Below, in pieces: positions 19,909 to 45,218 of a DNA stretch of 64,000 nt. A program made the position numbers and the translations under genes. The stretch's first letter is position 1. Each line of letters opens with the position of its first letter. The notes under the pieces are model-generated. The model did not search any database. It had not been told where the DNA came from and worked only from the letters and a program-made list of their open reading frames with translations. This stretch comes from Acidimicrobiia bacterium (GTDB lineage Bacteria; Acidobacteriota; Vicinamibacteria; Vicinamibacterales; SCN-69-37), in assembly GCA_016871335.1 (NCBI GenBank), contig VFZF01000003.1, positions 63,205 to 127,204 on the forward strand, written 5' to 3'.

Positions 19909-19912
19909 CGTG

Positions 19913-25362: not shown

Positions 25363-25364
25363 CA

Positions 25365-26882: not shown

Positions 26883-26887
26883 GTGCA

Positions 26888-26912
26888 GTGCCGTGCCGTG
26901 CCGTGCCGTGCC
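26888..26912. repeat. Pentanucleotide microsatellite (GTGCC)x5
   Basis: Five perfect tandem GTGCC units, read directly. A 7-bp hairpin GCACTGC-AAGT-GCAGTGC (26874-26891) lies immediately upstream. Confidence 0.9.
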
Positions 26913-26917
26913 TTCTC

Positions 26918-27390
26918 ACATCTGGTCCATCATTCAGGCCGCAGGTGCCGGCCGCAGACTCTCCGGCGTGACCGGCGGCGTGCCGAAGCAGTTCTTTCGT
27001 CCATCCGCTGGCGAGTCTCTCCTCAGCATGACGCTCGCGAGAACTGCTCCACTCGCCCGCCCTGACCGCACCGTGGTCATCGTCGATGAGTCCCACCGGC
27101 CGCTGCTGGACCCGGGTGACGTTCCCAGGGGGACGACCGTGCTGTTTCAGCCGACAGGTCGAGGCACGGCCACCGGCGTACTGATGGCCTTGATGCCCGT
27201 GCTTGCCGCAGCGCCTGACGATGTCGTCGTGCTGACGCCCTCCGATCACGCGGTGGCGGACGGCGATGCGTTTCGGCGTGGGGTCAGAGCGGCGGTGCGA
27301 TTCGCGGAGGAGCAGGGGGCCATCACCTTGTTCGCGGTGGAGCCGTCGGAAGCCTCCCCCGACTTCGGCTGGATTATTCCGGGTCACCGG
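26918..27390 (+). pseudogene. Mannose-1-phosphate guanylyltransferase-like nucleotidyltransferase remnant (N-terminal ~160 aa, no start codon)
   Basis: IIQAAGAGRRLSGVTGGVPKQFFRPSAGESLLSMTL...VVLTPSDHAV...FAVEPSEASPDFGWIIPG. Homology stops near 27390 and the frame then reads nonsense. There is no ATG, GTG or TTG at the expected N-terminus. Confidence 0.55.
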
Positions 27391-27398
27391 AATGGGCC

Positions 27399-27929
27399 CA
27401 TGGCGCGTGTGGCCTGCAGCAACTGGGCGGCGACATCCTGGTGGTGCATCCAAGCGATCTGGAGCGGCATCGCCATGACGTGCGTGGGCGCGTGGCTGAT
27501 GCCGTCGCGAGCATCGCCGCGTTGCATCTGCGCTGTGCGCCTCTGAACGTGCGTCTGGCTGTGGAGTCTCCGCTGCCGCACTTGATCGGGGGGGCTCCGG
27601 CTGAATTCGCCGCGATTCTGGAGGGCCTTGACCCGGCGGTTGGCGTCTGTCTGGACACCGGACATACCTGGCTCGGTGGGAGCTGGCGTCGTTTCGTGGA
27701 GGTCGCCGGTGCCCGGCTCACGCATGTCCACATCCATGACAACCATGGCTACCTCGACGACCATTTGCCGCCCGGTGACGGGGTCCTCAACTGGAACGAG
27801 ATACGTCAGTCTCTCGATGACGCGGGCTTCGACGGGTGGGCGATGCTCGAACTGCGGTGCCCAGTCGGCGAGATAGGGACGTTCTTTCGTCGTGCGATTG
27901 CGCAGGCGCGTGAGCGCCTTCTCCGGTGA
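27399..27929 (+). pseudogene. Xylose-isomerase-like TIM-barrel (sugar phosphate isomerase/epimerase) remnant, C-terminal ~175 aa
   Basis: LGGDILVVHPS...LAVESP...VGVCLDTGHTWLGG...HVHIHDN...DGWAMLEL. The N-terminal ~90-100 aa are missing. It abuts the nucleotidyltransferase remnant in a different frame. Confidence 0.55.
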
Positions 27930-27974
27930 GCCCGCCTGCCCGCGCTTCACGCAGGACTGTGGAATGATTGAGGC

Positions 27975-29444
27975 ATGTTGCTCGTCACCGGTGCGACCGG
28001 ATATGTGGGGGGGCGCCTGGTCCCGAGGCTGTTGGAGGACGGCTATCGCGTCCGTGTAATCGCGCGCGATCCAAGCCGGCTGCAGGGCCGTGCCTGGGCC
28101 GACCACCCGCAGGTGGACATTGTGCAGGGTGATGCCCTGTCGGCGGCGTCGCTCGGACCGGCGATGGCGGGTGTGACCTGCGCCTATTACCTGATCCACA
28201 GCATGCAGAAGACCGCCGGCGCGGCCGGCGATTTTCATGAACGTGACCTGACGGCTGCGAGGAACTTCGGCGCGGCAGCACGGCACGCCGGCGTGCAGCG
28301 CATCATCTACCTTGGCGGACTCGGCGATCCTGACGCCGACCTCTCTCATCACCTGCGGTCCCGCCAGGAGACGGGTGACGCCCTGCGGGAGGCGGGAGTG
28401 CCGGTCACCGAGTTTCGCGCGGCCGTGATTGTCGGCGCGGGCAGCGTGTCATTCGAGATCATCCGGCACCTGACTGAACGGTTGCCCGCCATGATCTGTC
28501 CGCGCTGGGTGTATACACGCGCGCAGCCCATCGCCATCAGCAACGTGCTCGACTATCTGGTGGCAGCGGTCCGGACCCCGGAGGCCGCCGGACGCGTCGT
28601 CGAGATCGGCGGCGCCGATGTACTGACCTACGGCGACATGATGCTCGGCTACGCGCGCGTGCGCGGGTTGCGCCGCTGGCTCGTGCCGGTGCCGGTACTC
28701 ACGCCGCGGCTGTCGTCGTACTGGGTGCACTGGGTGACACCGATTCCGGCCGAGATCGCGGTGCCGCTCATCGAAGGCCTGCGCAATGAGGTGGTGGTGC
28801 GCGACGATGCGGCCCGGCGTCTGTTTCCCGGTGTGCACCCACTCGACTACCGGACGGCCGTGGCTCAGGCGCTCGGGGAACTCGATGTGCGCCACGTGGA
28901 ATCGTCATGGAGCGATGCGCTGGCCACCTCGCAGCGCGACCGGATGCCGCTGGTCTTCACCGCGCAGGACGGCATGTTCATCGAGCGGCGGCAGCACCTG
29001 GTGCCGGCGTCGGCGGCAGACGTCTTCCGGGCGTTCACGCGGATCGGCGGGGAGTGGGGCTGGCCGAGTTTCAACTGGCTGTGGCGACTGCGGGGCGGAC
29101 TCGACCGGCTGATGGGCGGCGTGGGATTCCGTCGCGGCCGCCGTGACCCGGATGAACTGCGCCCTGGGGACGCGGTCGACTTCTGGCGGGTCGAGGCGGT
29201 TGATCACAACCGGCTGCTTCGCCTCCGCGCCGAGATGAAGGTGCCCGGCCGTGCGTGGCTGCAGTTCGAAGCCAGACCGCAGGAGGATGGCCGCACACTG
29301 CTCGTGCAGACCGCCTTCTTTGCGCCAAAGGGCCTGCCCGGATTGATGTACTGGTATGCCGTGTACCCGCTCCACGGGCCGGTCTTCAGCACGATGATTG
29401 CCCGGCTCAGTGCACGCGCAAGAACGAAGCCGGTCACCCGATAG
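27975..29444 (+). CDS. NAD(P)-binding SDR-family protein with C-terminal DUF2867-like domain
   Basis: The Rossmann motif is MLLVTGATGYVGGRLV. The long C-terminal domain contains FWRVEAVDHNRLLRLRAEMKVPGRAWLQF. Confidence 0.85.
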   Translation: MLLVTGATGYVGGRLVPRLLEDGYRVRVIARDPSRLQGRAWADHPQVDIVQGDALSAASLGPAMAGVTCAYYLIHSMQKTAGAAGDFHERDLTAARNFGAAARHAGVQRIIYLGGLGDPDADLSHHLRSRQETGDALREAGVPVTEFRAAVIVGAGSVSFEIIRHLTERLPAMICPRWVYTRAQPIAISNVLDYLVAAVRTPEAAGRVVEIGGADVLTYGDMMLGYARVRGLRRWLVPVPVLTPRLSSYWVHWVTPIPAEIAVPLIEGLRNEVVVRDDAARRLFPGVHPLDYRTAVAQALGELDVRHVESSWSDALATSQRDRMPLVFTAQDGMFIERRQHLVPASAADVFRAFTRIGGEWGWPSFNWLWRLRGGLDRLMGGVGFRRGRRDPDELRPGDAVDFWRVEAVDHNRLLRLRAEMKVPGRAWLQFEARPQEDGRTLLVQTAFFAPKGLPGLMYWYAVYPLHGPVFSTMIARLSARARTKPVTR

Positions 29445-29579
29445 CAGTGGTGGCCATATCGCTCGCTGGCCAACGGTGGTGAGCGCAGCGCCCGTGGCGG
29501 GTGATGAGGCCGCGTCTCTGGACCCGCGACGTCCTGCGACGGCGGTCGAGGTACACTCTCCACGGGTGAGTGCCCTGCG

Positions 29580-30107
29580 ATGATTCGTATCCTGGTTGCC
29601 GATGATCACCCGGTTGTGTGTCTTGGCCTCCGTCACCTGCTGAATGGACAGCCGGACAGCACGGTCGTAGGAGAGGCCGCTGACGGACGAGACGCGCTGA
29701 CGCAGATCGCGAACCTGCGCCCTGACGTGCTGCTGCTCGGTCTGCACATGCCGAACCTGCCTGGACTGGACACACGCCGGGAACTGGCCGACTGTATTCG
29801 CACGGTGGTACCGGGCGGCTACCGGTTGCGAGGCCGTGCCGTCACCAACCTTGTCACGGAGCTGGAAACGCTGGTGCGATCGCAACGCGACGCTCCGGTG
29901 TCCCGTGTGCAGCTGACACCCCGCGAGATGGAAGTGGTGCGCCAGGTGGTGATCGGCGGCACGAATCGGGATATCGCGACGCAGCTGGGAATCACCGAAG
30001 ACACCGTCAAGCGTCACCTGACACATGTCTTCGACAAGACCGGCGTCTCATCGCGCCTCGACCTCGCCCTGTTCGCCCTGAAACATCTCGGCCTCGCCGT
30101 GGTCTGA
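29580..30107 (+). CDS. LuxR/NarL-type regulator with degenerate receiver domain
   Basis: ILVADDHP is followed by DVLLLGLHMP, with Gly where the phospho-acceptor Asp is expected. The receiver is about 35 aa shorter than normal. The HTH is intact (LTPREMEVVRQVVIGGTNRDIATQLGITEDTVKRHLTHVFDK). Confidence 0.8.
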   Translation: MIRILVADDHPVVCLGLRHLLNGQPDSTVVGEAADGRDALTQIANLRPDVLLLGLHMPNLPGLDTRRELADCIRTVVPGGYRLRGRAVTNLVTELETLVRSQRDAPVSRVQLTPREMEVVRQVVIGGTNRDIATQLGITEDTVKRHLTHVFDKTGVSSRLDLALFALKHLGLAVV

Positions 30108-30260
30108 CGCGATGACTGGGGCGGCCGGCCTGGACGGGGAGCCTCCTCCTGCACGCCGTCGCCACGGCTTTCGGCCAGGGAACCCGCTGGTTGCGTGACC
30201 GGTTGTCCACCGTGACGGTCGTGCAGGAGGCGCTCGACAGGCACTGTGCCACAATCGCGC

Positions 30261-31301
30261 ATGCCGATCCCCCGTCCCTGTGCGCCTCGTCGTCCACGCG
30301 CTGCCCTGTGGCTCTGTCTCCTGTGGGCCCTGCTGGCGCCGTGGCACGCCGCCGCTCAACCGCCGCAGGCCCTCGCCCTGCGCGATCAGCTGGCGGTGGG
30401 CTATCTGCAGCTGGAGCTGGCCCTGGCCGAGCGCCCGGTCACGGCCACCGACGCCCGCATACAACTCAATCGTGAGTTCGATCGCCTGACCCTGACCTTC
30501 TTCGCGGGCAACATGACCGGCGCGATAGGCATGCTCGACACCCTGGTCCGTACCACCGTGGGTGATGCCGCACGTCTGACGATCCTGCGGTCGCGCGCGG
30601 AGGAGCGTCTGACCGCACTGACGGCCGCCCGCCGTGTGCAGCAGGTCGGTGCGGCGACTGTCCCGCATTTGTTGCACGTGCCACCGGGCGAGGCGCCGGC
30701 GGCGGGTTGGCCGGTCGTGGTGGCCGTACACGGCAGCGGCGGCGACGAACGGATGTTCTTCGGAGGGTACGGTGCCGGATCCATTCGGGCGCTTGCCGAG
30801 TCCCACGGTGTGGCCGTCGTCACTCCGCTGGCGCCGCTGTCACCTGCGGCCCTGCTGGGACTGGTGGACGCCTTGGCGGACTCACATCGCCTTGACGGTA
30901 CCCGCGTCGCGCTGCTCGGTCACTCCATGGGGGCGGGCGTCGTGTCACGCGCTGCGGCGGAACACCCCGCTCGGGTGCACGCCGTCGTGTGCATCGCCGG
31001 CAGTTGCGCGGCCGCCGCAGCAGAGGGCGCGCGGATGCCGGTGCTGGTGATCGCCGGTGCGCTCGATCCGCTGGCCGGTGCAGCTGGACTTGAACAGCAG
31101 ATGGGGGCCCTGCGGCGTGATGGCCGTGTCGTCCAGTTCCGGCGGTACGACACGGAAGGGCACACGCTGGTCGTCGGTCAGGCGTTGCCCGACGTCATGC
31201 GCTGGCTGGCCGACCAACTGTCGCAGCGAATGCCCCGCAGCGGCCTTCAGTCCATCCGTCAGCAGGATCACGCCAGGGAGAAACAGACCCACGCCCGGTG
31301 A
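30261..31301 (+). CDS. Secreted alpha/beta hydrolase (esterase/dienelactone-hydrolase-like)
   Basis: Signal peptide MPIPRPCAPRRPRAALWLCLLWALLAPWHAAAQ and nucleophile elbow LLGHSMGAG. I prefer ATG 30261 to GTG 30246. Confidence 0.75.
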   Translation: MPIPRPCAPRRPRAALWLCLLWALLAPWHAAAQPPQALALRDQLAVGYLQLELALAERPVTATDARIQLNREFDRLTLTFFAGNMTGAIGMLDTLVRTTVGDAARLTILRSRAEERLTALTAARRVQQVGAATVPHLLHVPPGEAPAAGWPVVVAVHGSGGDERMFFGGYGAGSIRALAESHGVAVVTPLAPLSPAALLGLVDALADSHRLDGTRVALLGHSMGAGVVSRAAAEHPARVHAVVCIAGSCAAAAAEGARMPVLVIAGALDPLAGAAGLEQQMGALRRDGRVVQFRRYDTEGHTLVVGQALPDVMRWLADQLSQRMPRSGLQSIRQQDHAREKQTHAR

Positions 31302-31342
31302 CGCCCCCGGGGCGGAACGTCACACCGAGTCTGTGGCGGGGG

Positions 31343-31401
31343 CCCTTCACGCCTCGTTGTGACGCGTGGGGCAGTGCGCCGTACCGGCGCGGACCGCCGT
31401 C
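31343..31401. repeat. Direct repeat copy A (imperfect duplicate of the pnp stop-codon region)
   Basis: CCCTTCACGCCTCGTTGTGA...TGGGGCAG...ACCGGCGCGGACCGCCGTC aligns with 41574-41634 at about 80% identity by hand count. The blocks that align exactly are 14, 8 and 15 nt. Confidence 0.7.
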
Positions 31402-31440
31402 GGTGGTGCTGCTGACTGTGCGTTGGGCCATGCGGCAATC

Positions 31441-33123
31441 CTACCGGCGGGCTGTTTCGACAGTGTAAGTGTGCCGCCCGCCCATGACCGTCAGCCTGGC
31501 CTTGACCTGATGGAGCGTCGTCGGCGGCACTGCGAAAATATCCTCGGACAACACGACAAAGTCGGCGAACCTGCCGACCGCCAGCGTGCCCTTCACATCG
31601 TCTTCAAAACTCGCGTACGCCGCATCACGGGTGAAGTGACGCACCGCGGCGTCCACCGAGATTCTCCCCTCGGGATACCAGCCGCCTTCAGGGGTGCCAT
31701 CCGGCAACTGGCGCGTGACGGCCGCGTGGATGCCACGCATCACCTCCATCGTGAACACCGGGTAGTCACTGCCGAATGCCTGCACGGCGCCCGCGTCATC
31801 AAACAGCTTGAACGCGTTGGAGCGAGACGCGCGATCAGGTCCCAGTGCCGGTGCGTAGTTGGTGAGCGTGATCGCGTCAGGGCTGGCGAACATCGCCTGC
31901 GTCGAGGCGATGACGCCAAGCGCCTTGAAGCGCGGCAGGTCGGTCAGGTCGGGCACCTCGACGTGCTCCACGCGATGGCGCCGGTCGCGCGGGCCGTTGA
32001 CCCGCGCTGCGTGTTCAAACGCGTCGAGCGCCATCCGGATCGCGCGGTCGCCGATCGCATGCAGCTGCACCTGCAGCCCCACGCGGTCGTAGTCCGTCAC
32101 CACGCGGTTGAGATCCTCCTGCGGCCACATCGGCAGGCCCGTTTCGCTGTGATGGGCGTAGGGGTCGAGCAGCGCGGCCGTATGGGCGTCGACCGTGCCG
32201 TCGAGCATACCCTTCGCAATGCCGAACTGCAGCAGGCCGTCGCGATGCGCGTCGCGCACGGCGACGAACTCCTGCAGGCGCTCCGGCGTGATGTCGCGCG
32301 CGAACGGTACGGCCACTCGAAGCCGGGCCTTCAGCGTCCCTTCGCGCAGCGCCCGCGTGTACGCCTCGAACTCGATGCCAGACGCGCCGCTGCCGCTCGC
32401 GACCTGCAGCGAGGTCAACCCGAACGACGCGGCCGTGTCGAGTTGTTCCAGCAGCGCGCGGTACACCTGGTCGGCGGTCAGGTCGGGCATCAGCCGACGC
32501 ACCAGTCCCGACGCCGCCTCCTTCAACACCCCGGTCGGCTCGCCGCGGGTGTCGCGGTCGATGCGGCCGTTCTCGGGATCGCGTGTGGCGCGTGTGATCC
32601 CTGCCAGCGCCAACGCGTGCGAGTTGACGACCACTTGATGCCCATCGCGATCGGTGAGCACGACGGGGCGGTCAGCAAACACCTCGTCGAGGTACCGGCG
32701 ATGCGCGCGGTGGTCCGGAAAGTCCGACGGTCCCCATCCGCGTCCAGTCACCCACTCGTCGGGCCCAAGCGTGGCGGCAAACTCGCGCAGCCGACGCTGG
32801 ATTTCGGCGACGGTGCCGGCCTCGACCAGATCAGCCGTGCGCCGTGTCGGCAGATGCCAGTGCGCGTCGTTGAACCCGGGTACCACACGGGCGCCGCCAA
32901 GATCCACCACCCGCGTCGCGTCGATGCGATGCCGTTCCACCTCATCCGCAGTCCCAATCGCGACGATGCGGCCTGCGGCGATGGCGAGGGCCTGCGCCTC
33001 CGGCTGCGCGGCCTCGCCGGTCCAGATCCGCGCATTCGTGTAGATGACCTCCGCAGGCGGCCGGGCACGGCTGCCGCACGCGACAACGTGAAGGGTCAGG
33101 GCAAGAGCCACGGCGTGGCGCAT
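31441..33123 (-). CDS. Amidohydrolase-family metal-dependent hydrolase (YtcJ-like), probable lipoprotein
   Basis: MRHAVALALTLHVVACGS, then VIYTNARIWTG...VPGFNDAHWHL. C-terminal metal ligands follow (HAIGDRA..., HRVEHVE, GSDYPV). I use the ATG at 33123. Confidence 0.88.
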   Translation of the reverse strand: MRHAVALALTLHVVACGSRARPPAEVIYTNARIWTGEAAQPEAQALAIAAGRIVAIGTADEVERHRIDATRVVDLGGARVVPGFNDAHWHLPTRRTADLVEAGTVAEIQRRLREFAATLGPDEWVTGRGWGPSDFPDHRAHRRYLDEVFADRPVVLTDRDGHQVVVNSHALALAGITRATRDPENGRIDRDTRGEPTGVLKEAASGLVRRLMPDLTADQVYRALLEQLDTAASFGLTSLQVASGSGASGIEFEAYTRALREGTLKARLRVAVPFARDITPERLQEFVAVRDAHRDGLLQFGIAKGMLDGTVDAHTAALLDPYAHHSETGLPMWPQEDLNRVVTDYDRVGLQVQLHAIGDRAIRMALDAFEHAARVNGPRDRRHRVEHVEVPDLTDLPRFKALGVIASTQAMFASPDAITLTNYAPALGPDRASRSNAFKLFDDAGAVQAFGSDYPVFTMEVMRGIHAAVTRQLPDGTPEGGWYPEGRISVDAAVRHFTRDAAYASFEDDVKGTLAVGRFADFVVLSEDIFAVPPTTLHQVKARLTVMGGRHTYTVETARR

Positions 33124-33324
33124 GCCGCGCAGTCTACACGCATCCGCCCGCCGATCGGCGCAGGAAAGAGCCACGGAGCAAAAACCCCGGGGCTTCATGA
33201 CGATGTGCGGATGGGGCAGCACCTGCCGCGCCACGTGGCGGCCAGGCAGACGTCGACGACGACTGGATCGAGCGAAGCGCGCGCCACAGGGCGCCGCTGC
33301 CAGACACGAACCGGCGGACTGTCC

Positions 33325-33945
33325 TCAGGTCGTCCTGCGTTTACTCTTCGAGACGGTCTGCAGCAGCGTCGCGGCCGTGAACGGCTTGGGCAGCCTGGCC
33401 GAGACGGAGATGTCCTGCGGCAGGTGTCGGGTGTCAACGTCCGACTGGCCGCTCATCACGACGCAGGGCACCCGCGGGTCGAGTTGCCTCATCGCGCGCA
33501 GCGCCTGCGGGCCGTCGAGCACGGGCATTGTGAGATCCGTGATCACCAGAGCGATGGACGAGTGCGCCTTGCGGAAGCGCTCGATCGCTTCTGCTCCGTC
33601 CTGCGCGAGCAGCACACGATAGCCGAACGCCTCAAGGGTGGCGGCCATCGTGGTTCTCACGGAGCTGTCATCTTCGACCACGAGCAGCATGTCGCCGTCC
33701 CCGCGCGGGAGATCGATCGTCCGAGCCTGGGGCTCGCTGCCGACGGCATCAGCATCGGCATCGGCGGGGAAGTACAGACGGAAGACGCTGCCCTTCCCGA
33801 CGTCACTGTAAATCATCATGAAGCCCCCATGGGCCCGGACGATGCTGAGCGTCGTGGGAATGCCGAGCCCCGTGCCGCTCCCGACCGGCTTGGTGCTGAA
33901 AAACGGCTCATAGATGTGCGAGAGCACCTCGAGCGTCATCAAGGG
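33325..33945 (-). pseudogene. Hybrid histidine kinase remnant: end of HATPase domain plus intact receiver domain
   Basis: [24 protein letters not shown] is followed by a full REC domain (MLLVVEDD...VITDLTMPVLDG...KPF). The sensor, HisKA and the N/G1 boxes are absent. The REC could still be made from an internal Met. Confidence 0.65.
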
Positions 33946-34456
33946 CGTGGACTGGGTAACGGCCAACGCCGTGCACCCAGCCGTGGCCAACATGAGCCTT
34001 GGTGGCGGCGTCAGCGAGGCGCTCGACGCTGCGGTGGTCAAATCCGCATCCAGCGGTGTGTTCTATGCGATTGCCGCCGGCAATAGCAGCACCGACGCTT
34101 GCACGTCGTCGCCCGCAAGAACGGGCCGAGGCGACAACGGCATCATGACCACCGCCGCGATCGACAGCTCCGACTCGGAAACCAGCTGGAGCAATTACGG
34201 CGCGTGCGTCGATGTCTGGGCGCCGGGGCAGAACATCCTGTCCACCAAACGAGGGGGCGGCACAACGACCATGTCTGGGACGTCGATGGCGTCGCCGAAC
34301 GTGGCCGGGACGGCAGCGCTGGCGCTGCTCAAACCCAAGATTGCAGTCGTCGACGCGTCAGGGCTGGAGATTAGACTGAAGAGTGACCTGGTCAACACCT
34401 CCAAGTTTGGCAAGGGGAGCGTCCTGATCATGCGCGTCAACGCCGACCCGTACTGA
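33926..34456 (+). pseudogene. Subtilisin-family (S8) peptidase remnant, C-terminal half only
   Basis: IKGVDWV...ANMSLGG...AIAAGN...SWSNYG...VWAPG...MSGTSMASPNVAG. The Asp and His catalytic regions are absent. The 5' end abuts the kinase remnant head to head. Confidence 0.7.
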
Positions 34457-34715
34457 GCCCACCCAAAAAGGCCGTCCCCCTGGAGTGAACGACCCGCTGA
34501 CGCGAGCCGGACGTGCTCGGCGCCATCCGATGCATCGTGCCTGTCTCGCTGCCGCCAGGCGCGTAGTCCGGTCGACCTCCTCGTCCTCGACCCAGCGTCG
34601 GATAAGGGATAAGATCGGCGGTGAAGCTCCGGCCGTATGGCCGTGGTGACCGAGGGGGCTACGATCTCGGCGCCCTGCGCGAGGGGATCGAGGCGATTAT
34701 GACCGCGCTGGACCA

Positions 34716-36737
34716 ATGACATCCACGCTCCGGAAACTGGCGGTCGGGCTGGTCATCGGGCTGGCTGCCTGGCTGGCCGCGACGGGGCTGGCGCGATTCG
34801 GCCTGCTCGACGATATCGAACTGGCGGCCTTCGATCGGCGGCTCATCGCCACGCATCGGCCCGCTGACGCCCACGACGACATCGTCATTGTGGAGATCAA
34901 TGAGTCGTCGCTCGACGCGCTGGAACCGGTGTTCGGCCGGTGGCCCTGGCCGCGGCTGGTGCACGCCGGGGCCGTGGATTACCTGTCGCGCGCCGGCGCG
35001 CGGGTGATCGCCTACGACATCCTGTTCGTGGACCGCGACCTTCGCGGCGCGTTTCCGGTGGGGGGGCGCACCGTGAGCGGCGCCGAGTCCGATCAGGCCC
35101 TGATTGACAGCGTGGGCCGCGCCGGGAATGTGGTGCTTGCCGCCAATGCCGCGTTTGAGGGGCTGGAGAGCGGCGCGGCTCCGGAGGCCGTTGCACCGCC
35201 GCTGCCCGGGATTTCGTACGCGCCGGGCGAAGGATTCCAGCGGCGCCCCTATCTCACGTTGCCGATCGAGCCGCTGGCGAATGTGGCTGCGGGCGTGGGC
35301 CACACCTTCCTGGTCCTGGATCCGGACGGCACGGCACGCCGCATCCTGCCGTTCGTCGAGGCGCAGGGGCGGATGATTCCGTGGCTCGGACTGAGCGCCG
35401 CGCTGGCCGCGACGAATCGGCAGCCGGAGGACGTGTCGGTTGACGGCGAGTGGCTGCGCATCGGCGACACACGCCTCGCGCTGCTGGCCGATCCGGTGCC
35501 CGGCACGCCGCCGCAGCCGTCCCGGCAGATGCTGCTCCGGCAGCATGGTCCGTACGCCACGGCGGACGGCGCCCGCACGTATCCGTCGTACTCGTTTTAT
35601 GACGTGCTGCGCGCTGAGGACGCATGGCACGCGGGGGAGGCGCCGGCGCTCGATCCTGACGTCTTTCGCGACAAGGTGGTGTTCGTCGGTCTGACCGCAC
35701 TCTCGGAGAACGACGTGCACACGTCGCCGTTCGGCGGACCGCCGCTGCCAGGCGTACAGTTGCACGCGGCCGCGGCCGATGACCTGCTGTCGGCCCGCAC
35801 CATGCGGCGCGCGCCGGCGTGGGCCAGCGCGGCCGTGACGGCGGCGGCGAGCGTGGTGACCGGCGTGTTGGCGGTGGTGTGTCTCCTGCGCCTCGGCCTG
35901 CCGGCGATTGCCGTCTTTGCCATGACGCTGGCCTGGGGGCTCACGAGCGCCGTCGGGCATGGCCTCTGGCTGGCCAGTGTGACGCCGGCGCTCGGGCTGA
36001 CGCTGGCGTTGTTTGGCGGGACGATCTGGCAATGGGCGGTGGAGGGCCACCAGAAGCGGCAAATCAAGGCGCTCTTCGGGAAGTATGTGTCGCCGGATGT
36101 GTTCTCGCATCTGGTCGCGCATCCCGACGTGGCGCTGGGCGGACAGCGGCGCGAGATGTCGGTGCTATTCTCTGACATCCGGGGATTCACCTCCACGTCC
36201 GAGAAGGCCTCGCCGGAGGCGGTTGTCGCCCAGCTGAACGAGTACTTCACGGCGATGGTCGAGGTGCTCTTCCGGCATCAGGGCACGCTCGACAAGTTCG
36301 TCGGCGACATGGTGATGGGGCTGTTCGGGGCGCCGGTCGCCGATCCCCGGCATGCCGACCATGCGGTCGGGGCGGCGGTCGAGATGGTGACGGTGCTCGA
36401 CCGGCTGAACGCCGGCTGGGAGGCGAGGGGGATGCCGCGGCTGGAGATCGGCATCGGGGTCAACTCCGGTGAGATGATTGCGGGTAACATCGGTTCCTCC
36501 TCGATCATGAGCTACACGGTCATCGGAGATGCGGTGAACCTCGGCGCGAGGCTCGAGTCGCTCAACAAGGACTTCGGCACGCGCATCCTGATCAGCGAGG
36601 CGACCCGGGCGCGGCTGACGATGCCGGTGGCGACGCGCGAGATGGGGGCGGTGACGGTCAAGGGCAAGACCACGGCGGTGCTGGTGCACGCGGTGGGTGC
36701 CGGGGCCGGCCGGGATGGCATGCAGGAGGTCGGGTGA
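34716..36737 (+). CDS. CHASE2-sensor class III adenylate/guanylate cyclase
   Basis: N-terminal TM helix and CHASE2-like periplasmic region (IVIVEINESSLDALEPVFGRWPWPRLVHA...AYDILF), then several TM helices. The cyclase core is REMSVLFSDIRGFTS...DKFVGDMVMGLFGAP...YTVIGDAVNLGARLES. Confidence 0.9.
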   Translation: MTSTLRKLAVGLVIGLAAWLAATGLARFGLLDDIELAAFDRRLIATHRPADAHDDIVIVEINESSLDALEPVFGRWPWPRLVHAGAVDYLSRAGARVIAYDILFVDRDLRGAFPVGGRTVSGAESDQALIDSVGRAGNVVLAANAAFEGLESGAAPEAVAPPLPGISYAPGEGFQRRPYLTLPIEPLANVAAGVGHTFLVLDPDGTARRILPFVEAQGRMIPWLGLSAALAATNRQPEDVSVDGEWLRIGDTRLALLADPVPGTPPQPSRQMLLRQHGPYATADGARTYPSYSFYDVLRAEDAWHAGEAPALDPDVFRDKVVFVGLTALSENDVHTSPFGGPPLPGVQLHAAAADDLLSARTMRRAPAWASAAVTAAASVVTGVLAVVCLLRLGLPAIAVFAMTLAWGLTSAVGHGLWLASVTPALGLTLALFGGTIWQWAVEGHQKRQIKALFGKYVSPDVFSHLVAHPDVALGGQRREMSVLFSDIRGFTSTSEKASPEAVVAQLNEYFTAMVEVLFRHQGTLDKFVGDMVMGLFGAPVADPRHADHAVGAAVEMVTVLDRLNAGWEARGMPRLEIGIGVNSGEMIAGNIGSSSIMSYTVIGDAVNLGARLESLNKDFGTRILISEATRARLTMPVATREMGAVTVKGKTTAVLVHAVGAGAGRDGMQEVG

Positions 36738-37819
36738 TGATGCGGCTGATGATCGGGGGCACACTGGTGATGGCCGGCCTGGCGGCGCCGGCCTCGGCGC
36801 AGCTGGGGCAGGTGGCGGGCCGGGTCCGCAACGCGGTGGACGCGGTCGATCAGGTGAAGGACCTGATCATCACCGAACAGGAAGAGATGGCGATGGGGGC
36901 CGCGATCAGCGAGAAGCTGCGGCAGAAGTACGGCGTGGTGCAGAATCAGGCCGTCCACAAGTATGTCTCGCTGGTGGGACACGTCCTGGCAGCCTCGAGC
37001 ACCCGGCCCGCCCTCTCCTGGACGTTCATCGTGCTCGACACCGATGGCGTCAATGCGTTTGCCGCGCCCGGCGGGTACATCCACATCACCCGCGGGGCGC
37101 TGGCGCTCATCCGCAACGAGTCGGAGCTGGCCGGCGTGCTCGGCCATGAACTGGCCCACGTCACGCAGAAACACACGATCAACGCGATCAGGAAGTCGAA
37201 GACGCTCGATCTGGGTACGACTGCGCTTTCACGCAGCCAGTTGCTCGATCGGGTCACCGACGCGGCGTATGAGAGCCTGCTCGAGAACAACTTCGACCGC
37301 GGGGACGAGAACTCGTCGGACGAGATCGGCATCCAGTTGTCGAATGCGGCCGGCTATGCGCCGTCGGGCCTCGGGTCGTTCCTCACCAAGCTGGCCGACC
37401 GCAACAAGGACCTGCAGGAGCGCAGCGGCGTGTTTGCGTCGCACCCCGAAACCAAGAGCCGGCTCGACCGCCTGAAGAGCCAGATCAGCTCGAAGAAGCT
37501 GACGGCCACCGCGACGGTGGCGGCGCGGTACACGGCCACGATCACCTACGCCCCCACGCCCGTCACGGCGGTCGCCACCGCTGCGCCCGGCGCGGCCGCG
37601 ACGCCGGCGGCCCCCAAGCCTGGTGACAGCCGCTTCGGCCTGGGCGGGCTGACCTCGAGGCTCGGCGGGGAGAAGACGGGCAACCAGACGGTGGCGTCGG
37701 CGGGTTCCCGCGGGGTGAATCCGGATCGTGACGCAAAGGGCGGGCCGAATCCACGGGCGGTGGCGGTGACGATTACCGCCGCGGACATCGCGGCGTTCCG
37801 CCAGGGCATTACGGGGTAA
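36737..37819 (+). CDS. Periplasmic M48-family zinc metalloprotease
   Basis: Signal peptide MMRLMIGGTLVMAGLAAPASAQ, the motif HELAHVTQKH, and a downstream GDENSSDEIG. The start codons (GTG 36734, ATG 36737 or 36740) overlap the cyclase stop, and GGAGG lies at 36725-36729. Confidence 0.85.
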   Translation: MMRLMIGGTLVMAGLAAPASAQLGQVAGRVRNAVDAVDQVKDLIITEQEEMAMGAAISEKLRQKYGVVQNQAVHKYVSLVGHVLAASSTRPALSWTFIVLDTDGVNAFAAPGGYIHITRGALALIRNESELAGVLGHELAHVTQKHTINAIRKSKTLDLGTTALSRSQLLDRVTDAAYESLLENNFDRGDENSSDEIGIQLSNAAGYAPSGLGSFLTKLADRNKDLQERSGVFASHPETKSRLDRLKSQISSKKLTATATVAARYTATITYAPTPVTAVATAAPGAAATPAAPKPGDSRFGLGGLTSRLGGEKTGNQTVASAGSRGVNPDRDAKGGPNPRAVAVTITAADIAAFRQGITG

Positions 37820-37824
37820 CGCGC

Positions 37825-39267
37825 GTGGACCACTCGGCGGCCGGTCATTTCTACGCCAGCCTGGCCCTGCTGGCCGGCGTGGCGCTGCTCTCGCTGGTGG
37901 CGCGCAACAGCAGGATCCGCCGGCGCCTGCACCTGACCGCCATGGTCGCGGGTGCGGCGGTCGTGTTGCACCTGGCGCTCGCCGGCGGCCCCTGGCTCGC
38001 GTCCGTCGGCGCGCAGTTGGCGGTGACCGAACGGCTGCTGCTCACGCTTGGCGTCATCCACGCGACGGTCACCGCCGCCTTTAATCCCTGGTTCGGCGAC
38101 AGTACCCGGGAGCGGACCCCCGGCATCGTCCAGAACGCGGTGGTGCTGGCAGTGTTCGGTGTGTGCGCGACGATGGCCTTCCCCGGCCAGCTGCTGGCGA
38201 CGTCGGCGGTCGGCGCCGTCGTCATGGGATTCGCCGTCCAGGACACGCTCAGCAATTTTTTCGCCGGACTGGCGCTGCAGATCGACCGGCCGTTCAAGCC
38301 CGGCCACTGGATTGAGGTTGGACCATTCCAGGGGCGTGTGCAGGAAATCACCTGGCGCGCGACCAAGATCCAGACCAAGGCCGGCAACCTCGTCGTGGTG
38401 CCCAACAACATCGTCGGCAAGGAAGCCATCAATAACTACTCCGAGCCGGCGGCGCCCACGCGCCTCATCGTGGAGGTGGGCACCGGCTATCAGCATCCGC
38501 CGAATGTCGTGCGCGAGGCCCTGATGGCCGCGATGCGGCGGTGTCCGAGGGTTCTGGCCGAACCGAGGCCTGATGTGGTGATGACCGACTTCGGTGCCTC
38601 GGCGCTCATCTTCCACGCGCGGTTCTGGGTGTCCGACTTCTCGACGGATGCGCGCGCCCGTGACGAGGTGCGCACGGCGATCTGGTACGAGTTCCGCCGC
38701 CGCGGGATCGAGATTCCCTGGCCGATTCAGATTGAGTATCAGCGCGAGGAGGCGCCGGTCGATCTTGATGCACAGCTGGAGCGGCGGCGGAGCCATCTCG
38801 CGGCGGTGCCGCTGCTGGCGCCGTTGCCGCCCGAGGGGCAGCTCGCGCTGGCGGGGGCGGCCACCGAGCGGCTGTTCGGCCGTGGGGAAGCCCTCGTCAG
38901 CGAAGGGGAGCCTGGCGCCTCGATGTTCATCGTGCTGGACGGGTCGGTGGCCGTCACGGTGGGCGGGGAGCGGCGCGAGGTGGCGGTCACGCAGGCCGGT
39001 GGCTATTTCGGGGAGATGTCGCTGCTGACCGGCGACGCGCGGTCGGCGACGGTCACTGCACGGGAGGACACCACCGTCCTGGAAATTTCCGCCGACGCGT
39101 TTGGCGCCTGCGTGCGCAGCCATCCGGCGCTGCTGGGCGCCATTGCCGATGCGGCGGTGGCGCGCCGCCAGGAACTCGACGCCGTCCGGCAGGCGCCCGG
39201 CGCCGCGCGCGCGCCGGCGGCGGCGTCCCTGATCGAGCGGATGCGGCGGTTCTTCCGCGTCCACTGA
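37825..39267 (+). CDS. MscS-family mechanosensitive channel with C-terminal cyclic-nucleotide-binding domain
   Basis: MscS core LSNFFAGLALQIDRPFKPGHWIEV...GRVQEITWRATKIQT...VVVPNN. The cNMP domain reads GEALVSEGEPGASMFIVLDGSV...GGYFGEMSLLTGDARSATVTA. Confidence 0.9.
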   Translation: MDHSAAGHFYASLALLAGVALLSLVARNSRIRRRLHLTAMVAGAAVVLHLALAGGPWLASVGAQLAVTERLLLTLGVIHATVTAAFNPWFGDSTRERTPGIVQNAVVLAVFGVCATMAFPGQLLATSAVGAVVMGFAVQDTLSNFFAGLALQIDRPFKPGHWIEVGPFQGRVQEITWRATKIQTKAGNLVVVPNNIVGKEAINNYSEPAAPTRLIVEVGTGYQHPPNVVREALMAAMRRCPRVLAEPRPDVVMTDFGASALIFHARFWVSDFSTDARARDEVRTAIWYEFRRRGIEIPWPIQIEYQREEAPVDLDAQLERRRSHLAAVPLLAPLPPEGQLALAGAATERLFGRGEALVSEGEPGASMFIVLDGSVAVTVGGERREVAVTQAGGYFGEMSLLTGDARSATVTAREDTTVLEISADAFGACVRSHPALLGAIADAAVARRQELDAVRQAPGAARAPAAASLIERMRRFFRVH

Positions 39268-39449
39268 GTCCGCCAGGGACATCGGGACTGGGACGCGTGA
39301 TCGGCTCCTCGTCCTGCGTCATCGCCTCCGAGAACAACGTGCCGTCGGCAATGGGGGCCGTCCGAGGTTTCGGGGCTTGACCGTCGCAATGGCGGCGGTG
39401 TCTGATGAACGCGTTTGTCCCCGCAAGGGGCGGAACAGGGAGGGTGACG

Positions 39450-40100
39450 GTGAGCAAACGAATCATTGAGGTGGCTGGTGTCGTGGTGCTGATGAGCGTG
39501 GCGACGGCGTGCGGCAAGTCGGCGGAACAGCAGGCGGCCGACGAAGCGGCGCAGGCCGCGGTCACCGCGGCCCAGAATACGGCCGCTTCTGCGGCCGACA
39601 TGGGCAAGACCCTGGAAGGATTCACCAATGCATTGAGCGGTGGCAATGAGGGCACGGCGACCGTCGAACCGGTCACCTTCCAGTCACTGATCGCCCTTCT
39701 ACCTGACGTGAATGGCTGGGAAAAAGAGAAACCCAGAGGGGAGCGGATGACTATCCCCGTGCCGTTTTCGCAGGCGGAGGTCAGCTACCGGAAGGGCGAT
39801 GCGAGTGTGGACCTCACGATTGTCGACACCGGTTTTGCGCAGCTGCTGTTTGCGCCGTTCAGCATGATGATGGCCACCGGATACAGCCGTGAGTCGAGCG
39901 ACGGCTACGAGCGCGCCGTCACCATCGACGGCCATCCCGCGCTGGAGGAATGGCGCAACGACGGCCACAGCGGCGAACTCACGGTCGCGGTTGCCAAACG
40001 GTTTCTCGTGACGGTGCATGGCTCGGCGGTGCCGGATGGGGCCACGTTGCGGACGTTCACGTCGGCAATGAATCTGGGGAAATTGGCCGGACTGAAGTAG
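39450..40100 (+). CDS. Lipoprotein, unknown family
   Basis: GTG 39450 has GGGAGG 6 nt upstream. The signal peptide (M)SKRIIEVAGVVVLMSVATAC carries a lipobox. The ORF-track start at 39405 is less likely. Confidence 0.6.
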   Translation: MSKRIIEVAGVVVLMSVATACGKSAEQQAADEAAQAAVTAAQNTAASAADMGKTLEGFTNALSGGNEGTATVEPVTFQSLIALLPDVNGWEKEKPRGERMTIPVPFSQAEVSYRKGDASVDLTIVDTGFAQLLFAPFSMMMATGYSRESSDGYERAVTIDGHPALEEWRNDGHSGELTVAVAKRFLVTVHGSAVPDGATLRTFTSAMNLGKLAGLK

Positions 40101-40311
40101 ACCGGATGGGGACGCCGGCCCCAGGCATGACACCCTCCATGTCCGACGATGGGAGCGCCCCCCTCAGGCCGGAGCTGGGAGTTGTCCTGGAGAACGTCAA
40201 CCCTCGGCGTGCCTGAGGATGGGCGTGCGCTGTTCTGTCAGCGCGACCGTCGCCTGAGTGCCGTCAGTCGCATCGGGGGCGGGCTTCGATGCGGTGTCTG
40301 TCCGCCGGCAA

Positions 40312-40779
40312 TCAATCAGCACGATGCCGGAAGACCTGCGGAACATATTTCGCCGCGAGGCGGGCAAATCGAACCGGGTAATACAAGGGGAACAGCGCAG
40401 GCGGCAAACTCACCAGCGCCAGATCCGGTTCGGCCGGCGCCCTGAGCAGCGCGGCGTAGTGACGCACTTTGTCCCACGGCGCCTCGGCCAGCCGGGCGTT
40501 GAACCGGGTGAGTTCCATGGTCGTTGGGTGTGCCAGCACGGTGCGTCGAAGGTATGACGTCACGTGCGCCGCAGCAGCGGTGACCGAGCGGTCCGCGCGC
40601 GCGCGGTCGAGCAGTGCGTCTGGACTGCCAGCGTCCAGCACGTCATGCGCAAGCAGAAGTCCCAGCAGCACGGGGCGCGCACATCGGGCGTGTACCGCGA
40701 GATCGAACGCCTCGGTCCAGTCGAGCGTCAGGCGAACCAGGCGCGCAATATCTGCCAGCCAAATCAGGCGCCGGGGGAC
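40312..40779 (-). pseudogene. Remnant of an uncharacterised nucleotidyltransferase (PF14907-like), C-terminal part only
   Basis: RRLIWLADIARLVRLTLDWTEAFDLAVHARCARPVLLGLLLAHDVLDA resembles the C-terminal helical region of that family. The N-terminal catalytic half is absent. Confidence 0.4.
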
Positions 40780-40858
40780 GCCAGAGAGCCTTCTGTACTG
40801 ACTGCCGATGCTTAAGCATCGGCTCCGATCGGGCGTTGAACGCCCCGGGGGAATCGCC

Positions 40859-41400
40859 GTGATCTGTGACCGAGCCCGTCCTGGCGCCATTGAGGCGGAC
40901 ACGGCATGGCGCACCATCGTCAGAAGACGGACCGGGGGGCGAGCGCTGGCGGTGGGGCTCGTCCTCGTGTCGGCCCGCGGAGCCGGTGTTCATGGCGCTG
41001 CAGCCCCGCTGGTCGGGCAGACGCCACGACCGCTCTCGGTCACCGATGCCGGCGATTTCTATTTCTTCGATGGCAAGCCGGTGCATCTGGACCGCGCCAC
41101 ATCCGAATGCGTGGTGGGACTCGCCGATGGGACCGACCCGCAGGCACTCGTCGAGAGCCTGCCAGTGCCTCTTGCTGCAGGGCAGCCCATGCTGGTGAAG
41201 GGGCGGCGGTTCGTCCTGCTGACGCTGCAGGCGTCTCAACCGGCCGTCGGTCTCAAACGGGTACTCGCGGCATTGCGCGCCAGGCCAGACGTGTGGTTTG
41301 TATCGCGTATCTCCTGCCAGCCGGCGACGAACGAGGTGGTCGTGAGGTATGCGGGCGGCGTGAACGCGTTTGGCCGACTCGCGCAGCGAACCCCGGCGCT
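40859..41400 (+). pseudogene. Possible remnant of a secreted-protease N-terminal (pro)domain
   Basis: Strong G/C bias at third codon positions supports this frame. A signal-like RRRTGGRALAVGLVLVSA is followed by FYFFDGKPVHLDRATSECVVGLADG...EVVVRYAGGV. No catalytic domain follows, and the ORF runs through the pnp terminator. The family call is tentative. Confidence 0.3.
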
Positions 41401-41477
41401 TCAACGTGTGTCGCAGCCGAGGACCGAAGGGCCCGTTATGTTCGGGAAAGACCCACGTAATACGGACTATCGGCGAG

Positions 41478-41509
41478 AAAAAAAAGCCGGGCAGGTAAGC
41501 CTGCCCGGC
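41478..41509 (-). terminator. Intrinsic terminator of pnp
   Basis: On the minus strand it reads GCCGGGCAGG-CTTA-CCTGCCCGGC, a 10-bp perfect stem, followed by TTTTTTTT. Confidence 0.9.
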
Positions 41510-41530
41510 TCTCGTGTTGTTCGGCGTGCC

Positions 41531-41560
41531 GGCCGACTTCAAGTTCAGTCGGCCCTACGT
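41531..41560 (-). repeat. Hairpin family 2, third copy (in the pnp 3' UTR)
   Basis: On the minus strand it reads ACGTAGGGCCGACTGAACTTGAAGTCGGCC. It has the same ACGTAGGGC leader and the same CTGAACTTG loop region as the two copies at 7942-8004. The variable stem triplet is different but compensated. Confidence 0.75.
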
Positions 41561-41573
41561 ATTGTGCTCCCAG

Positions 41574-41613
41574 CCCTCCACGCCTCGTTGTGAGGCCAGT
41601 GGGGCAGCGCAGT

Positions 41614-41634
<21 letters not shown>
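41574..41634. repeat. Direct repeat copy B (covers last 7 codons, stop and first ~40 nt of the 3' UTR of pnp)
   Basis: Aligns with 31343-31401 in the same orientation. It contains a small hairpin, CCAC-GCCTC-GTTGT-GAGGC-CA-GTGG. Confidence 0.7.
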
Positions 41635-43815
<2,181 letters not shown>

Positions 43816-44233: not shown

Positions 44234-45157
44234 TCAGCCGAGCACTGTCGAGGGCTGGAGCAGCCCGCCGCGCAGGTCGGCGAGGGCCACAAGGGCGCCT
44301 GACTCGTCGAGCAGGCGGATCTTCCGGAGGGTGTCCGAAGCCGGAACCCATGGCCCTTCAATCAGTTGCGGGCCGATGGGGTTGCCGTGCCTGACATTGA
44401 CCAGGCCCGCTTCCGACACCCGGACGGCCGGCAGGTCGGACAGGGCCTCGGCCATGGGCACCAGGTGCGCTTCGACCTCCGGGCCCAGCCGCTCGGCCTC
44501 AGCCAGGGGGAGGGCCCGGGTCACGTCGAACGGGCCCGACCGCGTGCGCCGCAGGGCGTCCAGATGGGCGGGGCAGCCAAGAGCCTCACCCAGGTCGCGG
44601 GCCAACGAGCGCACATAGAACCCGGCAGAGACCGACACACGGATGTGGAGCCGGTCGTCCTCGCGCCCCAGCCACTCCCACCCATGCAGCGCCACCGACG
44701 CCCGCTTGAGGTCTATTGGTTTGTCCTGCCGCGCAAGGTCGTACGCCCGCTGACCGTCGACCATCTTGGCGGAGTATCGGGGAGGCAGTTGTTCAAACGG
44801 CCCGACGGTCGCATCGAGGGCGGTGCGTATCGCGTCGTCCGAGAGAACCCGCCCGTCTCCCCACCCACCCAACTGCCCATCCGCCCATCCGCTCACCTTG
44901 ATGGGTTCGCCAGCGGCGTCATCCGTCGTGGTCGCAAAGCCAAACCGAATCGTGGCGTCGTAGGCCTTGTCGTGTCCGGTGAGAAGTGTGGCGATGCGGG
45001 TGGCCTTGCCGAGCATCAGGACGAGCAGGCCGGTGGCTCGGGGATCGAGCGTGCCTGCGTGTCCGATCGATCGCTCGCCGCTGACACGGCGCATCCGGGC
45101 CACAACGTCGTGCGACGTCGGGCCGGATGGCTTGTCGATGAGCAAAACACCGGTCAT
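44234..45157 (-). CDS. truB: tRNA pseudouridine(55) synthase
   Basis: GVLLIDKPSGPTSHDVV...GHAGTLDPRATGLLVLMLGKATR carries the catalytic Asp motif. Confidence 0.93.
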   Translation of the reverse strand: MTGVLLIDKPSGPTSHDVVARMRRVSGERSIGHAGTLDPRATGLLVLMLGKATRIATLLTGHDKAYDATIRFGFATTTDDAAGEPIKVSGWADGQLGGWGDGRVLSDDAIRTALDATVGPFEQLPPRYSAKMVDGQRAYDLARQDKPIDLKRASVALHGWEWLGREDDRLHIRVSVSAGFYVRSLARDLGEALGCPAHLDALRRTRSGPFDVTRALPLAEAERLGPEVEAHLVPMAEALSDLPAVRVSEAGLVNVRHGNPIGPQLIEGPWVPASDTLRKIRLLDESGALVALADLRGGLLQPSTVLG

Positions 45158-45163
45158 GGAAAA

Positions 45164-45218
45164 TGAGCTCGGAGGCGATTCCTCGCCGCATCCAGACGAA
45201 AAATCGCCTCCGAGCTCA
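45164..45218 (-). repeat. Palindromic element family 1, copy 1
   Basis: 17-bp perfect stem TGAGCTCGGAGGCGATT / AATCGCCTCCGAGCTCA with a 21-nt loop. The right arm contains the metK stop codon. On the minus strand it is followed by TTTTCC and then the truB ATG. Confidence 0.85.

Follow-up and report, generated by a model that had tools for sequence, protein, structure and literature searches.

In Vibrio cholerae, arrays of type VI secretion system (T6SS) effector-immunity genes have been proposed to grow by 'sequential displacement', in which homology-facilitated illegitimate recombination (HFIR) strands 3′ pieces as orphans downstream of a conserved gene (PMC5361080), and the same displacement has been proposed for rhs loci (Jackson et al. 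2009, cited in PMC5361080). Here we describe a comparable arrangement at pnp, the gene for polynucleotide phosphorylase, in a 64 000-nucleotide stretch of Vicinamibacterales DNA (contig VFZF01000003.1, positions 63 205 to 127 204; hereafter the window), where a diverged copy of the last pnp codons and of the adjoining 3′ untranslated region (UTR) lies about 10 kb downstream of the gene. As in the T6SS and rhs arrays, the conserved anchor gene stays whole, new DNA lies behind it, older 3′ pieces are orphaned further downstream, the events would be successive and no integrase is present; there as here, the mechanism has been inferred. The differences are that the anchor is a housekeeping gene and not a polymorphic toxin gene, and that the cargo is a mixture (toxin-antitoxin pairs, enzymes, signalling genes) in which no selective logic, retained immunity genes for instance, is apparent. 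The features of a displacement array that we find at pnp are an intact anchor with direct downstream copies of its 3′ end, variable breakpoints together with truncated genes at the junctions, and a gradient of decay in one sister lineage (L004; loci of relatives are given L numbers).

Islands bounded by attL and attR at tRNA, tmRNA or protein genes also have direct repeats, one of them at an intact 3′ end, with accessory DNA in between and possible accumulation in tandem. Unlike these islands, the pnp locus has neither an integrase nor a remnant of one, no fixed repeat length or core, no mobile cargo, a native composition, and inserts that can be a few hundred bases long. The REP and REPIN families, reportedly repetitive extragenic palindromes associated with RAYT, resemble the 3′ half of the pnp repeat, which is likewise short, dispersed and extragenic, often forms inverted hairpin-capable doublets and usually stands just after stop codons. 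However, the motif itself lacks the 5′ GTAG, which is found on a neighbouring hairpin instead, and such a family leaves the pnp-specific part of the repeat unexplained. Hotspots of horizontal gene transfer without integrases are also said to occur between core genes, and the variable mosaic of accessory genes and pseudogenes between pnp and a cupredoxin block, differing among close relatives and devoid of mobility genes, is of this sort. Unlike them, the pnp hotspot keeps recognisable duplicates of the 3′ end of the flanking core gene, and therefore single-anchor rather than double-crossover events are indicated.

The locus is a new instance of a known process: a hotspot without integrase in which displaced gene-end relics are preserved, here in a phylum that has been little studied. 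On balance we consider it probable that the distal copy is the decaying relic of an older pnp 3′ end, complete with tail codons, a UTR that includes a REP-like motif, and a terminator, displaced by pnp-anchored recombination of the illegitimate or Campbell type; ordinary recombination, rather than a virus-like integrating element, is most likely the process at work. This provides a multi-lineage example of accessory DNA accumulating behind a conserved housekeeping gene without mobile-element machinery, in a phylum of soil and freshwater bacteria. Each event would leave a 'fossil' of the old gene end, and such relics could be used to order the insertions and to estimate the respective shares of single-anchor events and integrases in the building of hotspots.

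Two copies of the pnp 3′ end

The original prediction, made from the sequence alone, had noticed an imperfect direct repeat of the pnp stop-codon region at the two edges of 10 kb of accessory DNA, and its hand alignment gave an overall identity of ~80%. MAFFT, a repeat search and blastn agree that the repeat is present at both sites in the same orientation; positions 31342-31402 and 41573-41635 are direct copies with 84.1% identity over 63 columns and one 2-nt indel. The E value of the distal copy against the window's own pnp end is 5e-11 to 6e-11 with blastn, and in a blastn self-comparison of the whole 64-kb window the pair is one of only two repeat families with E < 1e-6. The proximal copy, or copy A (41573-41635, minus strand), comprises the last 7 codons of pnp, the TAG, a spacer and a REP-like motif. 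The distal one, copy B (31342-31402, minus strand), stands in the gap between two convergent genes, for an alpha/beta-hydrolase (30246-31301, plus strand) and an amidohydrolase (31441-33234, minus strand). The three identical blocks listed in the hand alignment (CACGCCTCGTTGTGA, TGGGGCAG and ACCGGCGCGGACCGC) reappear in that of MAFFT, and sequence reads bear out that the TAG of pnp has been changed to TAC in copy B, where the frame runs DGGPRRY instead of DRGPRR-stop.

An assembly artefact is excluded: in ten independent assemblies, drawn from JGI, ENA and Logan, the 181 nt made up of the distal copy plus flanks are 100% identical in every case, and all five that reach the pnp side have an identical proximal copy (231 nt). 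Over the whole arrangement, identity among the ten assemblies is 99.95-100%, and the arrangement appears to be fixed in the source population. No RNA gene was matched in an Rfam gathering scan of the window, and a tRNA/tmRNA scan of the same sequence was also negative, which means that no tRNA target is involved.

The repeat consists of two layers. The 36 nt nearest to pnp (GACCGCGGTCCGCGCCGGTAG NNN GCGCTGCCCCAC: last 7 codons, stop and spacer) are pnp-specific, and they are identical to copy B (31366-31401) at 33 positions out of 36, with three mismatches; they match no other place in the window and gave no match in 100 shuffles. The distal copy thus derives from the pnp 3′ end, as had been proposed. 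The window was also searched for further pnp relics with sensitive blastn and tblastn, above all around 18.9 kb and 23.2 kb, and this one alone came up; a weak pnp-like match at 37515-37667 was rejected, its resemblance to the Arg/Gly tail being apparently of the GC-rich, low-complexity kind.

The second layer, i.e. the following 21-27 nt (TCACAACGAGGCGTGGAGGGCTGGGAG; exact match at 41567-41593, minus strand, in the pnp 3′ UTR, where it is the first of three predicted hairpins), belongs to a dispersed REP-like family, and copy B shares 20 of the 21 positions of its core (31342-31362). A metagenome scan found the 21-nt core (TCACARCGAGGCRTGRAGGGC) at 14 loci, only three of which are pnp ends, and further diverged copies were seen beyond these. 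The 11 non-pnp loci are intergenic with one exception (L088, in apparent coding sequence), and the intergenic copies usually lie 3-12 nt behind the stop codon of some unrelated gene. Two copies apiece occur on three contigs, and the motif makes up one arm of an inverted doublet in L084 (453/512), L089 (2144, 8159/8246) and L090 (3604, 5839/5914). These doublets span 40-95 nt, with TCACAACGAGGCRTGGAGGGC(TGGGAG) as the family arm; elsewhere, singlets stand just after stop codons. As sites of this REP- or MITE-like family (MITE, miniature inverted-repeat transposable element) we list L084:453-512, L089:2100-2144 and 8159-8246, and L090:3604-3645 and 5839-5914, together with sites in L085, L087, L092 and L094-L097. 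Most motif loci, which sit on related metagenome contigs, come from the same lake-metagenome series as the window; the longer ones match the composition of the window with r about 0.97-0.985. Because the core recurs at 11 non-pnp loci, some of them inverted doublets, we take the 3′ 21-27 nt of the repeat to be a REP-like dispersed element and not pnp-specific sequence. No RAYT (Y1 transposase) was seen in the parts scanned, namely the 64-kb window and the short fetched loci, and no wider search was made. A second sub-type of the motif, TCACAGGGAGGCGCGGAGG, was seen at L095:1497, and variants that look similar by eye stand after pnp in L004, L078 and L050.

Given such a family, the two copies in the window could be independent insertions of a dispersed REP- or MITE-like element, nothing having been inserted between the two sites as a unit. 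The abundance of the core outside pnp, the doublets, the position after stop codons and the matching composition would all agree with this, but we consider it very improbable. The 36 additional nucleotides shared by copy B and the pnp tail are missing from the non-pnp copies, which have nothing in common with the repeat 5′ of TCAC. Moreover, L004, L078 and L091 hold relics made of long or internal stretches of pnp coding sequence, for which a REP element gives no explanation, and about 1.2 Mb of pnp-centred loci (L001-L079) contain no copy of the motif apart from those at the pnp ends of L001-L003. Copy B is therefore best regarded as a pnp 3′ end that incidentally contains a REP-like motif. 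The original prediction had itself considered that the repeat might turn out to be a multi-copy REP-like element unconnected to pnp: this is the case for its 3′ part, with the 11 non-pnp loci, and not for its 5′ part, which is pnp-specific. For annotation, this calls for caution, because a repeat overlapping the 3′ end of a gene is not by itself an att site, and in the present one a dispersed REP-like motif makes up half the length.

The similarity to pnp ends probably continues past copy B, to about 31283, into what resembles a decayed terminator hairpin (CCGCCCCGGGGGCGTCACCGGG..., 31283-31334, minus strand). This segment was recognised by alignment, and its predicted fold is not significant (z = -0.45); it is similar to the CCCCGGGG-type terminator that follows pnp in L001, L003 and L004, except that the T-run is missing. 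The stop codon of the alpha/beta-hydrolase gene falls inside it.

The accessory zone downstream of pnp

In at least 14 Vicinamibacterales relatives (including L009, L010, L011, L014, L015, L016, L017, L029, L031, L060, L061 and L073), a block colinear with the window from about 18.8 to 9 kb starts 0.15-2.6 kb after the pnp stop. Its first gene is the cupredoxin-like gene (18447-18839 in the window, minus strand), which Pfam, synteny and a direct reading of L029 and L016 designate as the ancestral downstream neighbour of pnp. Because this block nearly adjoins pnp in these relatives, the segment from about 18.9 to 41.5 kb (22.6 kb), which they lack, is one plasticity zone, and the bracketed 10 kb are only its pnp-proximal part, not a discrete island. 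The boundaries first drawn for a 10-kb island were consequently not borne out, the pnp of the relatives being joined to the cupredoxin gene. The corresponding empty site, with pnp directly beside the alpha/beta-hydrolase gene, was not found either: homologues of the latter are in other contexts, and two of them (P0002 and P0003) are not near pnp and have no motif. Intermediate states are seen in L050, with a 4.7-kb insert, and in L003, where synteny is taken up again 8 kb after pnp, at the gene for the aminotransferase (window 21.9-23.2 kb). In the closest relatives, L001-L008, the pnp terminator is directly followed by unrelated DNA, and the cargo after pnp is entirely different between sister lineages.

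Copy B divides the zone into two blocks. The proximal one (31403-41479) contains the amidohydrolase gene, a histidine kinase-receiver (HK-REC) remnant, an S8 peptidase remnant, a CHASE2-cyclase/M48/MscS-cNMP unit, an open reading frame (ORF) for a lipoprotein-like product and an NTP_transf_5 remnant. The distal one (18886-31341) carries a hypothetical gene and genes for a molybdopterin oxidoreductase, an aminotransferase (also in L003), an M48-DUF5666 protein (also in L091, in opposite relative orientation), SRPBCC and lipocalin proteins, an NTP transferase, an NmrA-DUF2867 protein, a short REC-GerE regulator and the alpha/beta-hydrolase. Pfam confirmed that the amidohydrolase, CHASE2-cyclase, M48 peptidase and MscS-cNMP genes announced as intact are so. 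Among the four gene remnants proposed, the kinase-REC, S8 and PF14907-like ones stood, with HATPase_c profile positions 37-110 only plus REC in the first, profile positions 95-259 of 288 in the second and a weak match to the NTP_transf_5 C-terminus in the third; the protease-prodomain-like one had no Pfam match. The DNA had also been called foreign-looking, and this did not survive a tetranucleotide comparison of inside and outside: correlation with the rest of the window is r = 0.98 for the proximal block and r = 0.97 for the distal block, i.e. a native composition in both halves of the zone. Domains of recombinases, transposases, phages or conjugation systems were absent from a six-frame Pfam scan of the gaps, from the ORFs of the 18.8-41.6 kb interval and from the Pfam calls on population contigs; the earlier remark that no integrase is left in the bracket was right.

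Genes are truncated at the junctions, and the two genes that converge on copy B also bear marks. The alpha/beta-hydrolase (30246-31301, plus strand; identified by Pfam and by alignment with homologues) has a 25-aa C-terminal extension (SQRMPRSGLQSIRQQDHAREKQTHAR, about 31227-31301) missing in four homologues (P0002, P0003, P0008 and P0009); it runs on into the flank of the relic, as though a junction had cost the gene its native stop. The YtcJ-like amidohydrolase (Amidohydro_3, 31441-33234) is full length and stands alone, whereas its homologues in L108 and L109 (75-76% identity) overlap the upstream amidase gene in a DsbD-DUF1028-amidase-amidohydrolase operon.

Two further observations concern this part of the window. 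Three M48 peptidase genes are found within 20 kb (17372-18469, 23200-24246 and 36734-37819), one of them with DUF5666 and one in the CHASE2-cyclase/M48/MscS-cNMP unit. The NarL-type response regulator at 29580-30107 (175 aa) has a receiver domain reduced to profile positions 1-65 of 111, followed by GerE; judging from the profile match, it is possibly internally deleted.

Relics in sister lineages and their possible origin

Downstream relics of the pnp 3′ end recur in four other close lineages (L003, L004, L078 and L001/L091). Counting that of the window, all seven relics in these five lineages are in direct orientation and downstream of pnp, and no pnp-coding fragment was found upstream of pnp in any locus. 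There are three copies in L004: the first, 3.2 kb after pnp, is made of pnp nt 1557-1596, nt 1811-1994 and a segment from nt 2061 to the end of the terminator; the second, at 7.1 kb, of nt 1895-2012 plus the terminator; and the third, at 8.2 kb, of nt 1912-1967 and 2017-2049. The L004 relics are thus shorter and more deleted with growing distance from pnp (the window has one relic only), and are 94-97% identical to L004's own pnp. In L078, an internally deleted relic that starts at pnp nt 1355 and runs as far as the terminator lies behind a HicA toxin pair of ~0.5 kb (HicA is confirmed, its partner weakly), and a ParE-type toxin-antitoxin pair comes after the relic. In L003, the last 60 nt of the UTR and the terminator are found again 375 nt downstream, around a 62-aa ORF which is the cargo there. 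The L001/L091 relic is a 78-nt internal pnp fragment, 5.8 kb downstream. The cargo of L004 includes a MazF toxin. Inserts can be as small as 0.3-0.5 kb, and no recombinase was found in those of L003, L004, L078 and L091. On the left, the relics begin at nt 1355, 1557, 1761 or 2178 of pnp or 37 nt past its stop (+37), a spread of > 800 nt; their right boundary is the end of the terminator wherever a terminator is kept. With such scattered starts of independent duplications of the pnp end, a fixed core is lacking.

These data bear on the original interpretation of the repeats as attL and attR of an old integrative element, which would have carried a mimic of the pnp 3′ end and later lost its integrase and mobility genes. 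Such an element would account for direct repeats, one of them reaching into an intact gene's 3′ end, and for the reconstituted pnp; the tandem relic arrays of L004 resemble tandem islands at tRNA genes, and toxin-antitoxin modules are common as island cargo. We nevertheless find this interpretation unlikely. There is no recombinase in the six-frame gap scans, in the ORFs of the 22.6-kb zone or in the inserts of the sister lineages; the duplicated extents differ by > 800 nt between events; and inserts of 0.3-0.5 kb are too small to encode an integrase. Genes of phages, integrative and conjugative elements or plasmids are lacking, the composition is native, the empty site of the relatives does not coincide with the proposed boundaries, and three scans of IMG/VR contigs returned none with the motif, the pnp tail or the pnp C-terminus. 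Five defining features of site-specific integration were tested and only one was found, namely direct repeats on both sides of the insert, with one overlapping an intact target gene's 3′ end.

Another mechanism would be a tandem duplication in situ of the pnp 3′ region and of the DNA downstream, followed by deletion or replacement, with nothing imported. While the direct repeats, the native composition and the high identity of the L004 relics to L004's own pnp would be expected in this case, the affinities of copy B would not: it is closer to the pnp end of L002 (90% over 61 nt, E = 1.5e-13) than to copy A (84%). No internal duplication is present in the DNA between the copies, and the cargo is wholly different between sister lineages. 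A local origin of this kind therefore appears to us rather improbable.

The small size of some inserts suggests yet another possibility, in which a recombinase supplied in trans (a RAYT/IS200-type Y1 enzyme, XerCD or an integron-like integrase) would insert cassettes at hairpins of the pnp 3′ UTR, be it the REP-like motif, the GTAG hairpin or the terminator, older ends being pushed outward. Cassettes devoid of a recombinase (a toxin-antitoxin pair, a 62-aa ORF) do lie between hairpin-bearing repeats, the duplications have their right boundaries where the terminator ends, and the UTR holds REP-like elements, one of them with a 5′ GTAG. On the other hand, a hairpin-specific reaction does not predict relics whose share of pnp coding sequence reaches about 800 nt and whose starts vary, and neither a Y1 transposase nor an integron integrase was seen in the window and the fetched loci, the rest of the genome being outside the search. 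Copies of the terminator or hairpin are only found together with pnp ends or relics, and there is no array of hairpin-ended cassettes. We would give little credence to an enzyme of this type. An attC-like cassette array was ruled out by blastn-short searches, which placed terminator hairpins only beside pnp ends and relics.

Displacement of older pnp ends by recombination anchored in pnp could proceed as follows. Incoming DNA would pair with the highly conserved pnp, which serves as homologous anchor. In a first route, the molecule would be a linear fragment whose other end is joined illegitimately, close to the pnp end of the recipient, as in HFIR; in a second, a circular molecule with a pnp 3′ segment would enter by a single Campbell-type crossover. 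By either route, a complete pnp with its UTR and terminator would be restored from the incoming DNA, with the cargo behind, and the recipient's old pnp end would be shifted downstream, where it then decays. Repeated events, along with deletions and rearrangements, would build up the 22.6-kb zone between pnp and the cupredoxin gene. The earlier reading of the footprint, with DNA brought in between the gene and a former pnp end, agrees with what we find, pnp itself having retained an intact end and its terminator; recombination as the route, and the assignment of the copies to donor and recipient, we infer. The affinity of copy B to the L002 allele, a divergent patch inside pnp (42864-43230, see below) and the shuffled types of REP motif, GTAG hairpin and terminator among relatives point to exchange from one lineage to another. 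Also counted in favour of displacement, as probable marks of illegitimate junctions in the window, are the truncated HK, S8 and NTP_transf_5 genes, the alpha/beta-hydrolase without its own stop and the amidohydrolase torn from its amidase operon.

Several points weigh against this explanation. No junction microhomology could be demonstrated, the junctions being too diverged to read, and no other lineage was found with the donor arrangement, i.e. pnp followed by the same cargo. A sliding-window comparison of pnp revealed no clean breakpoint between donor and recipient near the 3′ end, only the internal divergent patch. Exact-protein look-ups brought no population variant lacking the insert, since all contigs with the window's amidohydrolase or pnp protein share its arrangement. 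To our knowledge, neither HFIR nor natural transformation is documented for Acidobacteriota. The window's relic, because it is short and half of it is a dispersed repeat, is by itself weaker evidence than the relics of L004 and L078. As to these, the relatives are represented by contigs of metagenome-assembled genomes, so that chimeric assembly is possible in part, though mis-assembly does not yield diverged and deleted copies.

A more far-reaching version, which we regard as speculative and unlikely, is that in this Vicinamibacterales clade the pnp 3′ end is the docking site of a self-propagating, integrase-free cassette system. Recombination between the resident pnp end and a displaced copy would release circles made of cargo and one copy of the pnp end with its hairpin, and these circles could re-enter the pnp of any relative by homologous recombination or through a hairpin-specific enzyme of the host. 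If true, the 3′ end and terminator of a housekeeping gene would act as a portable attachment site building arrays of toxin-antitoxin pairs, small ORFs and enzymes.

The pnp gene, its 3′ UTR and other repeats

The pnp ORF is intact (41614-43815, minus strand) and is the last of the nusA-infB-rbfA...metK-truB-rpsO-pnp cluster, the upstream part of which is syntenic in relatives. At the amino-acid level, it is 97% identical to that of L001 and 96% to that of L002, both Vicinamibacterales, and 75-91% to many others. Within the gene, a patch of ~350 nt (42864-43230) shows 84-85% identity to L001/L002 vs 93-98% for the flanking parts; it looks like a recombination mosaic inside pnp.

The 3′ UTR of the window's pnp is predicted to fold into three hairpins (z = -5.2). 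The second of them, as predicted, has a GTAG prefix (ACGTAGGGCCGACTGAACTTGAAGTCGGCC, 41531-41560, minus strand), and 5′ GTAG is typical of RAYT-type REP substrates. The same hairpin recurs after pnp in L001 (12254-12281), L086, L091 and L093 (1060-1086); variants were recognised by eye in L005, L006 and L072, and also at a non-pnp site in L092/L096, there together with the first motif. The intrinsic terminator, a GC-rich hairpin followed by a T-run (41480-41511, minus strand), was identified from its sequence, its fold and comparison with relatives. Similarity of the window to L002 and L093 stops at the end of this terminator, and that to L001 stops earlier, at ~41531, because L001 has a different type of terminator. 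In L001-L003, the pnp stop is followed by the motif TCACA(A/G)CGAGGC(G/A)TGGAGGGCTGGGAG and then by the terminator, and a diverged variant of the motif occupies the same place in L004 and L078. In the window, L001 and L093, an extra GTAG-prefixed hairpin is intercalated between motif and terminator. The REP variant, the GTAG hairpin and the type of terminator are thus combined differently among close relatives.

Across Vicinamibacterales, very stable hairpins of unrelated sequence were seen after the pnp stop (L068:949-1095; L014:12206-12350; L005:12200-12340; L007:5955-6095; L013:7683-7823; L017:5964-6060; L073:799-945). Several consist of short tandem repeats arranged as giant palindromes, that of L068 being about 55 bp long with -117 kcal/mol and z = -12.5, and that of L014 having z = -9.5. 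They may reflect convergent selection for a protected mRNA 3′ end in a gene which itself encodes a 3′-5′ exonuclease.

Insertions are also seen further up in the cluster: in L110 (5179-6375, about window 47.4-48.6 kb), a gene for a PIN-domain (VapC-like) protein, a small upstream ORF and a 120-aa ORF annotated as BrxC lie inside the rbfA...metK-truB-rpsO-pnp cluster. Finally, the window contains a second palindromic family (GAAAAATGAGCTCGGAGGCGATTT...AAATCGCCTCCGAGCTCATTTTTC) at 45157-45204, 56258-56304 and 56691-56737. Two inverted copies flank a 386-nt segment at 56.3-56.7 kb, and the third, which is partial, is located between truB and metK.

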